A stretch of 64,000 nucleotides of DNA. Origin: Shigella phage KRT47. A program made the position numbers and the translations under genes. Where the stretch lies: sequence record MN781580. One strand, given 5' to 3'. The notes below the pieces were generated by a model. That model made no database searches. It had not been told where the DNA came from and saw nothing but the letters and a program-made list of their open reading frames with translations. The first letter of the stretch is position 1. Each line of letters opens with the position of its first letter. Below are positions 29,845 through 39,328 of the stretch, piece by piece.

Positions 29845-30318
29845 TTATTTGAACGATTTAACGTACTGAATAGAACCTTTACTATTTACAAAGGCAATTT
29901 TACCATTTTTATTATACATGGTAGCAGTACGTTGATAGCCATAAGTTTGTTTACCAGATTGATAACCAACTAATGCAAAATTATCTTCACCCATTTTATT
30001 CTGTTTAGCGCGAATGCGTTCATGACCATGTGCCATAAGAACCTTAGCGTCGCCAGTTGCAATGGATCTACGAGTTTTTTCATCTTCAACTGTATTAACA
30101 AAGTCGTCAAATGAATCAAATTTAGCATGAGATTTATTATACAGTTTTCCATCTACTGCATAATTATATCCCTGTACATCCATCTCAACTTCTGTACCAT
30201 CATCCAATACAGCAGTGATTTTTTGACCTTTTTTAAATTTCAAAAGATCAGTAAAAGATTCAGCAATAATTTGAGAATTAATAGCTGCTTCAGTAATAAA
30301 TTCTTGATATGTTTTCAT
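29845..30318 (-). CDS. internal (capsid-packaged) protein with capsid-targeting sequence
   Basis: 157 aa; N-terminus MKTYQEFITEA matches the T-even internal-protein capsid-targeting sequence. Confidence 0.75.
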   Translation of the reverse strand: MKTYQEFITEAAINSQIIAESFTDLLKFKKGQKITAVLDDGTEVEMDVQGYNYAVDGKLYNKSHAKFDSFDDFVNTVEDEKTRRSIATGDAKVLMAHGHERIRAKQNKMGEDNFALVGYQSGKQTYGYQRTATMYNKNGKIAFVNSKGSIQYVKSFK

Positions 30319-30334
30319 GTGTATCCTTTAATTT

Positions 30335-30652
30335 TTATTCTTTAGGGAAGTTTTTAGAATATGCATCATAAAGCTTATTTCCAATACGGCGGAAAACTCT
30401 AGCAGCAAAACGATTTTCTGGGTTTTTAATCATGATTTGCATCATATAAGTACCCGCGTCAGAAAGAGCTTCTTCATAGTACCCGTTAATTTCTTTAAGA
30501 GTCCTACGTTTACCACCAGGACCATCAACAGTGATTTTCCATTTACCTGTAGAAGTGCGACTTGGCGGCTCAACTTGTTCAATCCAGATATAACCGCCTT
30601 CTACACGTTGTCCTGCAGCAGATTCTGCAATAAATTCTTTATACGTTTTCAT
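30335..30652 (-). CDS. internal (capsid-packaged) protein with capsid-targeting sequence
   Basis: 105 aa; N-terminus MKTYKEFIAES. Confidence 0.75.
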   Translation of the reverse strand: MKTYKEFIAESAAGQRVEGGYIWIEQVEPPSRTSTGKWKITVDGPGGKRRTLKEINGYYEEALSDAGTYMMQIMIKNPENRFAARVFRRIGNKLYDAYSKNFPKE

Positions 30653-30706
30653 GTGTTTCCTTTAAATATTTTAATTAGTAATTTATCTATTCAAGTAACT
30701 GTGAAT

Positions 30707-30736
30707 ATACTATCACAATTCCAAGAGAAAGTAAAC
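30707..30736 (-). promoter_or_regulatory. early-type promoter upstream of internal-protein gene
   Basis: minus strand GTTTAC, 18 nt, TAGTAT. Confidence 0.5.
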
Positions 30737-30740
30737 AACT

Positions 30741-31235
30741 TTATAGATTTTTATACGCGTCCCACGTACCAGTTCTAAACGTGGCAATGACTCGTTTTGC
30801 GCGATTAGGTGTTTGATTATACCATCGACTTTTAGCTAAGTTAACTACTGCTTCATCCCAGCGTTTTTGTTGAAGCATACGCAAAGAGTTAGTAAATCCT
30901 GCCACGCCAGTTTCTCCCATTTGGAAGACCATATTAATCAATGCGCAGCGACGAACCGCATCAAGAGAATCATAAACCGGTTTTAATTTAGCATTTCTTA
31001 AAATTCCGCGAACAGCAGCATCAACATCCTGATTAAAAAGTTTTTCAGCCTCATCTTTTGTAATTACACCATTGCAATTACGCCCAATAGCTTTATCTAA
31101 TTCAGATTTAGCAACATTAAGTGATGGACTTTTTGTAAGCAAATGACCGATGCCAATAGTGTAATAGCCTTCTGTGTCTTTATAGATTTTAAGTCTAAGA
31201 CCTTCATCTATACGTAACATTTCAAATATATTCAT
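30741..31235 (-). CDS. e: lysozyme (endolysin, T4 e-type)
   Basis: 164 aa; [32 protein letters not shown] matches T4 lysozyme nearly residue for residue. Confidence 0.95.
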
Positions 31236-31262
31236 AATACCTCCTAAGTATTTATAGAAGGT

Positions 31263-31270
31263 ATTTATAA
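31263..31270 (-). promoter_or_regulatory. late promoter (TATAAATA) for e
   Basis: minus strand TATAAATA about 28 nt upstream of the e ATG; a second copy lies at 31249-31256. Confidence 0.55.
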
Positions 31271-31272
31271 AA

Positions 31273-31728
31273 TTAAAAGAGGTTGTTCATTATTCGGTAA
31301 AGTGAAGGACCCATCACATATTGCCACTGAGTACGAGGAATAAGAGCAAAAGCATCCATCTCTGGAATCATAACGCCATCTTTATTTTCAAAATAAGACT
31401 CGCAATGGCAATTTCTAAACATCTCATGCTCTACTGGAATCGTATAATAAAATAACTGTAGGTCTTTATTACTAGAATATTTAAATACACCTAGGTCTTC
31501 TAGAAGGTCTGGATTATAATTGTTAAAACCAGTCTCTTCTGAGCATTCTCTTCGTGCTGCATCTAATGCGCTTAAATCAGAATTTTCTACACGCCCCTTT
31601 GGAATATCCCAGCGATGTGCCATCATTCCAGGCTTACGAGAACCAGTAACTCGTCCCATAAATAAATCTTTATCTTCTGTCATGAAGATAATACCAGCTG
31701 ATAATGTTTTCATTTTAATTTCCTGCAT
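31273..31728 (-). CDS. nudE: Nudix hydrolase
   Basis: 151 aa; Nudix box [23 protein letters not shown]. Confidence 0.85.
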
Positions 31729-32198
31729 TCAGTGATAAAATTATTTAAATTTTGAGTATATTTCTTTTCATCAAAAATCTTTTGCTGCCTACGTAACCGC
31801 CATGGCATTTCAATGAACACGCACCATATTCCTGATAGTACTGCTGCTGTAAAAATATTAACAAGTATAATTAAAAGAATCCAATCTTCCGTTCTGCCTA
31901 CTGGACTTTCTCCAAAGAAGCAAAATACAAATGATGTCACAGGAAAACTAATAATATACCACAGAATAACCTTCTTATCTGTGAACCAATCAGCGTTCGT
32001 TAACTTAGCACGACCATTTTGAATACACACGAATTTATCATCTGTTACAGTAGATGGCTTAACTGCTTGATATCCCATTCTAAACTCCCTAATTAATCGT
32101 TTCTTTGTATCTTCAGAACAGCCGCTCCAGTCAACTCTATCGACTGAAATGCCATCGTCCCCATCATCTAAATCATACCAGCGAGTTTTTAAAATCAT
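31710..32198 (-). CDS. membrane protein
   Basis: 162 aa; two or more hydrophobic helices. Confidence 0.6.
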   Translation of the reverse strand: MILKTRWYDLDDGDDGISVDRVDWSGCSEDTKKRLIREFRMGYQAVKPSTVTDDKFVCIQNGRAKLTNADWFTDKKVILWYIISFPVTSFVFCFFGESPVGRTEDWILLIILVNIFTAAVLSGIWCVFIEMPWRLRRQQKIFDEKKYTQNLNNFITECRKLK

Positions 32199-32269
32199 TT
32201 GATTTTCCTACAATCATTCACGAATTCTTTCATTGATTCATTTTCAATATAAGACATGTAGTTATTATA

Positions 32270-37881: not shown

Positions 37882-37968
37882 TGGTGCGAGAAGTGGGACT
37901 CGAACCCACAAGGAAATCATTCCGCAGCATTTTAAGTGCTGTGCCTTTACCAATTTGACCATTCTCGC
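37882..37968 (-). tRNA. tRNA-Leu (anticodon TAA), long variable arm
   Basis: 87-nt type II structure; anticodon stem CAGCA/TGCTG with loop CTTAAAA; CCA encoded. Confidence 0.85.
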
Positions 37969-37969
37969 G

Positions 37970-38042
37970 CTGGGAATAAAGGACTCGAACCTTTGCATCC
38001 TGGAATCAAAATCCAGTGCCTTACCAACTTGGCTAATTCCCA
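37970..38042 (-). tRNA. tRNA-Gln (anticodon TTG), CCA not encoded
   Basis: 73-nt cloverleaf starting with U1-A72 pair; anticodon stem CTGGA/TCCAG with loop TTTTGAT; abuts tRNA-Leu. Confidence 0.8.
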
Positions 38043-38139
38043 ATTATTAACAAAGGCTCTCAAGCAAGAACCCTTGATGATAGAGGGTATTAATCAGTGC
38101 GATATGAGTTAATAATAACAAATAATTCTTAAAGCATAT

Positions 38140-38427
38140 TTACCATTTATGATAATACATATTTACGATGCATTCAAGACCCAAAGGATTCTTGAAAATA
38201 TCATATTCAAGAGGACCTTTTTCTGTTTCAATAAAGAAATCAAAATTTACTGTATTAAATTTACGGTCTTCCTTCACTAATTTAACTTGAGAAGATGAAC
38301 GGTCAATGTAAACCTTTTCAACTTCAAAATATGTTAAAATGCCATAATCATCAATCAAGGCTTTAGCCGCGTCTTGATCATATTTATATCCATTTTCAAT
38401 GGATGATACTTTCGCATAAAGAATCAT
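38140..38427 (-). CDS. hypothetical protein
   Basis: 95-aa ORF. Confidence 0.6.
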   Translation of the reverse strand: MILYAKVSSIENGYKYDQDAAKALIDDYGILTYFEVEKVYIDRSSSQVKLVKEDRKFNTVNFDFFIETEKGPLEYDIFKNPLGLECIVNMYYHKW

Positions 38428-38429
38428 TA

Positions 38430-38813
38430 TCAGCCTTCATCAACAATAGTATGAGTATGGGCATTTACAATTTGCCACCAGTCAAAACGATTAGAACCAT
38501 ACATCGGTTTATTTTCATTTTCTTTAATAATATCACGAAGTTCATCTTCGGTAGCGGCTTTCGCGATTAAATCAGCATATCCACCACGAGGATAATAATT
38601 ATCACCTGCAAAAAGTAAAAAGTTTGGTTTAATATTATTGAACTCTTCAAGAGTAATAACTTTTCCTGATGGTAGTTGAACAATCTCTACATATTTATAT
38701 CCTAATTTTTGAGCAGCATCTACTGCTTCAAGCAAAGTATCATGAGCCCATCCAATTTGACAACCTGGCTTTTCAGATGGATTAGCCTGATAATCCGCAT
38801 ACACTTTATACAT
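38430..38813 (-). CDS. hypothetical protein
   Basis: start at MYKVYADYQ Met with AAAGGTGA RBS. Confidence 0.6.
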   Translation of the reverse strand: MYKVYADYQANPSEKPGCQIGWAHDTLLEAVDAAQKLGYKYVEIVQLPSGKVITLEEFNNIKPNFLLFAGDNYYPRGGYADLIAKAATEDELRDIIKENENKPMYGSNRFDWWQIVNAHTHTIVDEG

Positions 38814-38814
38814 T

Positions 38815-39000
38815 CTATTCACCTTTAGAAATTTTATCCATAACGATAGCAATTAAACCAATTAAAAATGCTACTACAAGTGAAAACACATTTTCTGCTG
38901 TAGTTAATAATCCACATATAAATCCAACAAACATTGAAAAACTAAAAGCAGAAGCAGAAATTGCAATAGCAACATTTCGAATTAATTCACAGCGTTTCAT
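38815..39000 (-). CDS. small membrane protein
   Basis: 61 aa, two hydrophobic helices; preceded by GAGGAG RBS and an early promoter. Confidence 0.6.
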   Translation of the reverse strand: MKRCELIRNVAIAISASAFSFSMFVGFICGLLTTAENVFSLVVAFLIGLIAIVMDKISKGE

Positions 39001-39028
39001 TTTATTCTCCTCAGTAGTTGATAGGGTA

Positions 39029-39058
39029 ATAGTATCACAACTAAAACCCTATGTAAAC
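39029..39058 (-). promoter_or_regulatory. early promoter within a repeated cassette
   Basis: minus strand GTTTAC, 18 nt, TACTAT. Confidence 0.65.
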
Positions 39059-39070
39059 AACTTTGTGAAA

Positions 39071-39328
39071 TTATTTTAAATCTTCTAATCGTTTCTTCAT
39101 CTTAGAACCATTTTTAGCAATTTCTCCTGCATCGGAGCATAACGCTAAAAGTGCTTTAACTTTAGTTTGGTCTCCTTTAAAAGACGAAGGATCGACTGCA
39201 GCAGCAAGTTCTTTAATACGAGAGAAAAGACGCTCAGCTTCAGCTAAAGCCATTCCAAGCTTTACTTCCATACCGTGAGAAGATTCAGTGATAGTAGTTT
39301 TTGTAGCAAACTCTTTGAAAGTTTTCAT
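39071..39328 (-). CDS. internal-protein-like small protein (divergent capsid-targeting sequence)
   Basis: 85 aa; N-terminus MKTFKEFATKTTITE; located where T4 ipI sits next to 57B. Confidence 0.6.
   Translation of the reverse strand: MKTFKEFATKTTITESSHGMEVKLGMALAEAERLFSRIKELAAAVDPSSFKGDQTKVKALLALCSDAGEIAKNGSKMKKRLEDLK

Follow-up and report, generated by a model that had tools for sequence, protein, structure and literature searches.

Five internal-protein-type genes in Shigella phage KRT47 and a possible third ip locus between rnaC and e.8

In phage T4, approximately 300 copies of each basic internal protein (Ip) are packaged and injected. For foreign proteins to be taken into the T4 prohead core, the first 10 residues of IPIII are enough, and mutagenesis has shown the importance of leader residues 4 and 7 for targeting and of residues 8 and 10 for cleavage by gp21 (PMC9026906). 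Ip1 inhibits the GmrSD enzyme of CT596, in agreement with the statement in an earlier sequence-only reading of the DNA described below (the original prediction) that IPI is a GmrSD inhibitor, and Ip2 and Ip3 inhibit two other GmrSD subtypes without cross-protection (PMC12373910). In addition, Bas37_0260, a protein of 77 amino acids (aa) that was identified here as Ip6, inhibits McrBC (bioRxiv 10.1101/2025.11.20.689424). As cited in later papers, a polymorphic set of internal proteins and the proposal that diverse proteins carrying a capsid-targeting sequence (CTS) are injected anti-restriction factors go back to Repoila et al. (1994), and the literature searched speaks of two ip loci in T4 and of "at least 10" Ips. 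Here we describe five open reading frames (ORFs) with CTS leaders in a 64,000-nucleotide (nt) stretch of Shigella phage KRT47 (MN781580; hereafter the window), two of which lie outside the known ip loci.

The window belongs to a Tequatrovirus and shares approximately 96% identity with numerous sequenced coliphages and phages of Shigella and Yersinia. Its gene order on the minus strand is T4-like, with 1, 57A, 57B, an ip locus, trna.4-.2, the tRNA genes, and rnaD/rnaC, followed, as in T4, by e.8 to e.2, nudE, e, a further ip locus, and vs.8. Five minus-strand ORFs begin with a CTS leader, and all were found where the original prediction had placed them: 29845-30318 (Ip4), 30335-30652 (Ip10-like), 35105-35668 and 35794-36267 (both unnamed), and 39071-39328 (Ip5). 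The pattern MK[TS][YF]x[EQ]F opened 5 of the 134 window ORFs of at least 60 aa and no ORF in each of 30 shuffles. The assignment of the five genes to three loci also held, since three genes occupy the known ip loci (57B-trna.4 or e-vs.8) and the two unnamed genes stand at a separate site between rnaC and e.8.

From these analyses together it is likely that the five are ip genes of a T2/T4-type phage, whose products would be packaged via the CTS and injected as target-specific inhibitors. In the proposed mechanism, which is drawn by direct analogy with T4 IPI-III, an N-terminal CTS of approximately 10-15 residues would bind the gp22 scaffolding core, by which the protein would be built into the prohead, and the gp21 prohead protease would cut after the Glu of an (L/I)-x-E motif. 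The small basic mature protein would then stay among the packaged DNA and be injected along with it. In the cell, each protein would most likely neutralise one specific first-response defence; the most probable target would be a subtype of a modification-dependent (type IV) enzyme of the GmrSD or McrBC kind, which attacks glucosyl-hydroxymethylcytosine (glucosyl-hmC) or hmC DNA.

The leaders themselves carry the residues mapped in T4. Position 4 is Y, Y, Y, Y, and F, and all five proteins have F at position 7; this retention of an aromatic residue at position 4 and of Phe at position 7 supports CTS function. L or I at position 8 and Glu at position 10 are present in four of the five leaders, giving ITE, IAE, LTE, and LNE at residues 8-10, and ITE occurs at residues 13-15 in the leader of Ip5. 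A start of the form MKTYxEF(I/L)xE had been claimed for all five ORFs; a CTS leader is indeed present in each, but the fourth ORF begins MKSY rather than MKTY. Conservation of the leader extends to the DNA level and includes the ribosome-binding site, in a 54-nt repeat family (D2) with 83% and 65% identity. The predicted mature proteins are 7.5-19.7 kDa with isoelectric points (pI) of 9.1-9.6, compared with 8-20 kDa and pI 9.0-9.65 for T4 IPI*, IPII*, and IPIII*. Furthermore, three of the ORFs are identical or homologous to annotated internal head proteins, as described below, which supports the interpretation as ip genes.

The T4 rnaC terminator (...AGCCCCGACCGAAAGGTTGGGGCTTTTTGGTAT) leads straight into CTAAGCCTTTCC... 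and the e.8 promoter. In the window, approximately 1,244 bp with both unnamed genes is inserted exactly between the rnaC-terminator and e.8-promoter-side sequences of T4. The left junction of this 1.24-kb insertion is GGGGCTTTTTGGTAT/AAATATAG and the right junction is GGGCTTTTTGGCAT/CTAGGCC (slashes mark the junctions), with GGGCTTTTTGGYAT at the junctions. The gene at 35794-36267 (minus strand) encodes 157 aa with the leader MKSYAQFLNE/AVLNE/A (slashes mark predicted cuts), in which a second LNE is found at residues 13-15, and its predicted mature product is approximately 15.5 kDa with pI 9.5. The gene at 35105-35668 (minus strand) encodes 187 aa with the leader MKTYAEFLTE/A and a predicted mature product of 19.7 kDa with pI 9.5. 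Both proteins fall in phrog_2280.

The regulatory sequences around the pair, all on the minus strand, are partly duplicated. A terminator hairpin with the same sequence as the 3' end of T4 rnaC lies at 36321-36344, at the left junction, and a second rnaC-type copy lies at 35763-35786 downstream of the 157-aa gene, within a 71-nt repeat (D4) of 72% identity. A terminator-like hairpin after the 187-aa gene (35078-35096; D8) differs from the rnaC type but has the same tail, GGGCTTTTTGGCAT, and forms the right junction relative to T4. An exact T4 late-promoter box, TATAAATA, is located at 36307-36314, 47 nt upstream of the 157-aa gene, and a putative late-promoter-like box with one mismatch, AATAAATA, at 35707-35714, 46 nt upstream of the 187-aa gene. 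The description of two genes between duplicated hairpins with a late promoter thus applies to 35794-36267, which has the exact box, and fails for 35105-35668, which has a different hairpin and a one-mismatch box.

No gene is present at the rnaC-e.8 site in T2, T4, T6, or PST, and in JS98 the site holds a 205-aa CTS-bearing protein, "orf135". The 187-aa protein was matched in 164 phage records and the 157-aa protein in 511, and among the matches listed every one is a "hypothetical protein". Together with the 189 records that matched the Ip10-like ORF, these numbers compare with approximately 1,179 T4-like records that match the region, and such a patchy distribution is typical of accessory genes.

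The bodies of the five proteins had been described as unrelated, and this stood for most pairs; the two proteins between rnaC and e.8 are probably paralogous. Both matched phrog_2280 over their full length (E = 1e-53 for the 187-aa and 5e-59 for the 157-aa protein). When the two families were compared directly by BLASTP and hhalign, the shared signal was the 10-residue leader alone. On the other hand, the JS98 orf135 family aligned with the 157-aa family over 156 columns (hhalign probability 95%, E = 1.7e-8) and with the C-terminal 81 columns of the 187-aa family (probability 43%, E = 2.5e-4), and collinear BLASTP alignments back this bridge even with the leaders stripped. In AlphaFold2 (AF2) models, the two proteins have the same layout, in which three N-terminal helices are followed by a linker and a long helical hairpin; the linker is of Lys/Pro/Ala in the 157-aa protein (predicted local distance difference test score, pLDDT, 76) and of Pro/Lys in the 187-aa protein, whose model is of low confidence (pLDDT 61.5). 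We therefore consider, with moderate confidence, that the two are remote tandem paralogues, the homology being indirect and seen only via JS98 orf135. A Foldseek search of the PDB and BFVD with the 157-aa model returned its own family only, and the 187-aa model was too poor for a fold search. An exhaustive hidden Markov model search with the 157-aa profile against 1.8 billion cluster representatives yielded 13 matches and no link to any characterised protein. Full-length members of the 157-aa family from more distant T4-like phages keep CTS-like leaders, and MLKFNEFLAE, MINFSDFLNE, MKSFSSFLNE, and MKFKEFLAE precede bodies of less than 50% identity; that the leader is kept while the bodies diverge argues for selection on the tag.

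Ip5 is encoded at the ipI locus (57B-trna.4; 39071-39328, minus strand). This 85-aa protein has the leader MKTFKEFATKTTITE/S and a predicted mature form of 7.5 kDa with pI 9.2, was assigned to phrog_3499 "internal head protein", and shares 100% identity with both PST IpV and Bas37_0261; T2 and T6 have an annotated Ip5 gene at the matching position. The ORF had been called divergent, but its leader is simply of the type of T4 IPI (MKTFKEFTSTTTPVSTITE/A), of which the mature form comprises 76 of 95 residues. Because of this leader type, cleavage of Ip5 is expected after Glu15 rather than Glu10. The originally predicted cut after Glu10 suits the four leaders in which the motif ends at Glu10, and must be moved in Ip5, whose ITE lies at 13-15. 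The Ip5 body shows 48% identity to a 93-aa internal protein sited between e and denV in other phages. This, too, tells against the view of the bodies as all unrelated, and the occurrence of a relative at a different locus indicates that bodies move between loci.

In the e-vs.8 locus, Ip4 (29845-30318, minus strand) is a 157-aa protein with the leader MKTYQEFITE/A and a predicted mature form of 16.5 kDa with pI 9.1. It matched Pfam DUF7412 (E = 6e-96) and phrog_3155 "internal virion protein" and is 100% identical to IpIV of Yersinia phage PST, and a gene named ip4 is annotated at the matching position in T2. The Ip10-like internal protein (30335-30652, minus strand; phrog_3966) has 105 aa, the leader MKTYKEFIAE/S, and a predicted mature form of 10.8 kDa with pI 9.6. 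It shows 71% identity to the "ip10" annotated in VR25/VR20, and the annotation of the 189 records that matched it is mostly "hypothetical". The region upstream of this gene is nearly identical to that of T4 ipIII and contains an early-type promoter element at 30700-30742 (minus strand), the 43-nt copy of repeat family D3.

The surroundings of Ip4 and the Ip10-like gene vary among phages. A tblastn search with T4 DenV (endonuclease V) gave no match anywhere in the window. The normal place of denV is next to the ip genes, where the stretch between e and the Ip10-like gene is 30653-30740. It is present in PinkRuby, Kelasse, and T4 at varying positions of this locus and is not annotated in the corresponding T2 and T6 regions either; its absence looks like a known polymorphism of the hyperplastic e-vs.8 locus. 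Between Ip4 and vs.8 there is a non-coding spacer of 140 nt (29705-29844, minus strand), compared with just 27 nt between denV and vs.8 in T4. PinkRuby annotates a 33-aa ORF that spans the end of this spacer and the start of vs.8, and the predicted RNA fold of the spacer was no better than that of shuffled sequences (z = 0.15).

BLASTP matches of the five proteins to T4 IPI, IPII, and IPIII were limited to the leader, and a tblastn search of the window with complete T4 IPI and IPIII gave no match. None of the five has homology to Ip1, Ip2, Ip3, or Ip6, and Ip6 is absent from the window. Close homology to IPI, IPII, or IPIII, which would have spoken against the original prediction, was accordingly not observed in the bodies. 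A similarity of Ip4 to T4 IPII was considered and rejected, the comparison of body with body after removal of the leaders giving E = 0.46. In searches of Pfam, NCBIfam, and PDB sequences, DUF7412 in Ip4 was the only hit among the five proteins, the rest being sub-threshold noise, and the PDB sequence search found no relative of solved structure for any of them.

A cassette-like organisation had been proposed, and repeated promoter or terminator elements do bracket the genes. Ip5 is bracketed by two copies of a 69-nt early-promoter/stem-loop element on the minus strand. The upstream copy (39348-39416; repeat family D1; GTTTACA ... TGATACTAT) is identical in T4 and has the inverted repeat GATGAG/CTCATC around its -10 region. 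The second copy (39018-39086) begins at the Ip5 stop codon, 330 nt from the upstream copy, to which it is 83% identical, and a short inverted repeat surrounds the -10 box in each of the two. Further copies are found at 34898-34966 (69 nt), preceding e.8, and at 30700-30742 (43 nt); the four copies (TTTCACAAAGTTGTTTACAT ... TGATACTAT) are spread several kb apart. In a three-way alignment of the ipI locus of the window, T4, and Bas37, the window and T4 share both flanks; the alignment of these two is lost after approximately leader codon 8 and regained at the stop codon and the repeated promoter. In Bas37, a further cassette (Ip6) is stacked behind the same repeat. Gene replacement and stacking thus occur exactly at the repeats. 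Across approximately 25 related loci that were scanned, each genome carried between one and six CTS genes, and the common leader preceded at least 18 families of bodies. The genes are probably exchangeable cassettes that consist of a regulatory element, a ribosome-binding site, leader codons, and a variable body, in which the bracketing repeats and the conserved leader would provide homology for swapping, stacking, and deleting bodies between phages. The pattern agrees with the PeSL model (Arbiol 2010; Comeau 2014, PMC4122927), in which the regulatory cassettes of T4-type phages are mobile, and the latter paper recalls the 1994 observation on the IP locus.

Several points weigh against reading the five as injected inhibitors. 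Packaging, cleavage, injection, and an anti-restriction role of the five are what we infer from the comparisons above. Structure prediction and fold searches yielded no functional clue, and virion proteomics covering the two unnamed proteins was not found in the literature searched. The genes of the gp21 protease and the gp22 scaffold would lie just outside the window, which ends at gene 17; in the close relative Bas37, which has an identical Ip5, the prohead core proteins, protease, and scaffold are encoded just beyond gene 20. T4 IPIII also affects head assembly (PMC9026906), so that an anti-defence role is not the sole precedent. In addition, when ip4-10 were assayed against further GmrSD variants, no reproducible target was found (Silas et al. 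2025, PMC12373910); the ip4, ip5, and ip10 of that study are assumed to be the proteins of the window.

The last of these results fits proteins that would be injected against defences outside type IV restriction, such as BREX, Druantia, Septu, retrons, or toxin-antitoxin systems, and presence at DNA entry would be useful against any early-acting defence. Yet all four Ips of known target inhibit type IV enzymes, and GmrSD is very diverse, with a handful of subtypes tested so far; we regard such targets as unlikely. Somewhat less probable still is that the phrog_2280 pair, perhaps with others, is packaged to play a structural or DNA-binding part in the head and not to inhibit a defence, serving in charge neutralisation, DNA organisation, DNA protection during ejection, or, as for IPIII, core assembly. 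Such a role is suggested by the basic nature of the pair (pI 9.5) and its Lys/Pro/Ala-rich linker, which is much longer in JS98 orf135 (PAKPAKAPVSKPAAQTKVAAPKPTPKAEPVKEAPKPK) and is similar to DNA-binding segments of the histone-tail type; the rest of these proteins is modelled as simple helical bundles and hairpins. The architecture is conserved across several genera at one fixed locus, and T4 IPIII mutants assemble heads more slowly (PMC9026906). However, the genes are absent from T2, T4, T6, PST, and most related records, and are therefore not needed for head structure. All characterised Ips, moreover, are likewise basic and DNA-associated, yet are specific enzyme inhibitors.

The conservation of the leader and ribosome-binding site as DNA (D2), together with the position of the ipI-locus recombination breakpoint inside the leader codons, raises the question of whether the CTS-like N-termini of the two unnamed ORFs are by-products of recombination, in which these sequences serve as a joint and the proteins stay unpackaged in the cytoplasm of the producing cell. 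The MKSY...Q variant, which is off the T4 consensus at two positions, would agree with this. On the other hand, diverged family members keep the mapped residues (the aromatic residue at 4, Phe at 7, and L/I-x-E) while their nucleotide and body sequences drift, and the exact late promoter precedes the 157-aa gene. Since the first 10 residues package foreign proteins in T4, late-made proteins with the tag should be packaged, and we consider a mere by-product very improbable. Injected, target-specific inhibition thus remains our preferred reading of the five genes.

As effector candidates, the five are less new than had been supposed: they are CTS proteins in cassettes and plausible effectors, but three belong to named or annotated families, and the idea dates from 1994 and has since been proven in part. 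Injected CTS-tagged anti-restriction proteins in T-even phages are already established. The possible novelty is modest and consists of a third ip locus and its family, both of which lack a label in every record examined and are absent from the phages of classical internal-protein biochemistry. We tentatively suggest, while considering it doubtful, that the rnaC-e.8 gap is an undescribed ip locus holding one diverged family (phrog_2280), whose members would be CTS-tagged, DNA-associated proteins injected against a defence that the Ips of T2, T4, and T6 do not address. This family would span the window pair, JS98 orf135, and homologues from Klebsiella and Yersinia phages. The defence concerned could differ in class from GmrSD, or the proteins could shield the entering DNA via the Lys/Pro-rich segment. 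Injected internal proteins are the first counter-measure of the phage, and every one characterised so far has led to a particular type IV enzyme. The practical value is narrow, adding one family and one locus to the candidates for screening against defence systems; Bas37 (KarlGJung, MZ501089), of the BASEL collection, carries both genes of the rnaC-e.8 site and is genetically tractable.

Annotation pipelines miss CTS-tagged genes. CTS-like ORFs called hypothetical were also noticed in VR25 (1821-2084, 14721-15020, and 15310-15642) and JS98 (12732-13349), with the leaders MKTYQEFITE..., MQTFHEFLVE..., MNIKTYNEFLAE..., and MKTYNEFLNE.... VR25_125, VR25_155, and JS98 orf135 lack an internal-protein label in genomes that are otherwise carefully annotated, and in VR25_157 the leader begins at residue 3, an indication that the start codon was wrongly assigned. 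Internal-protein genes thus seem to be systematically under-called.

The sequences upstream of the rnaC-e.8 insertion also differ in part from those of T4. The stretch 36345-36650 (minus strand), which has a tRNA-like T-arm, hardly differs from the small stable RNAs rnaD and rnaC of T4 (species 2 and 1), and no matching Rfam family was found for it. A 49-aa ORF (36451-36600) is probably spurious because it lies inside this stretch. Between tRNA-Arg and rnaD, a 116-aa ORF (36656-37006, minus strand) is a homologue of "RB69ORF150c"/RB51ORF141, which is present in T2 and not in T4. Eleven tRNA genes without the segB homing endonuclease occupy 37025-38042, compared with eight tRNA genes with segB among them in T4; the set has His, Asn, Tyr, and Met in addition and lacks Ile.

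The five proteins resemble T4 IPI, IPII, and IPIII in the leader, which is of the MKTYQEFIAE type or the MKTFKEF...ITE type of IPI, in the gp21 cleavage motif, in their small basic predicted mature products, and in two common loci with a near-identical upstream promoter and ribosome-binding site. They differ in having no detectable body homology and in that two of the five genes occupy a locus that is empty in T4. Compared with the named Ips of T2, T6, PST, VR25, and relatives (Ip4, Ip5, Ip6, Ip7, Ip9, and Ip10), three window ORFs are 100%, 100%, and 71% identical, while Ip6, the published McrBC inhibitor, belongs to that set and is absent from the window. The window also differs from these phages in combination and order, with e, the Ip10-like gene, and Ip4, without denV, and with Ip5 alone at the ipI locus. 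The uncharacterised phrog_2280 relatives (JS98 orf135, RB32ORF133c, and Bas37_0243-0244) are annotated as internal proteins in none of the records examined. They share with the window pair the locus between the tRNA/rnaC region and e.8, a CTS-like leader, and the layout of a three-helix N-terminal domain, a Lys/Pro linker, and a helical hairpin. As in the PeSL cassettes, copies of early-promoter and stem-loop elements lie on both sides of variable ORFs at the ipI locus and recur upstream of the Ip10-like gene, and the window promoter fits the published PST/T4 consensus TTTACW-N17-TAYWAT. In contrast, the repeat at the rnaC-e.8 site is an intrinsic terminator accompanied by a late promoter rather than an early promoter.

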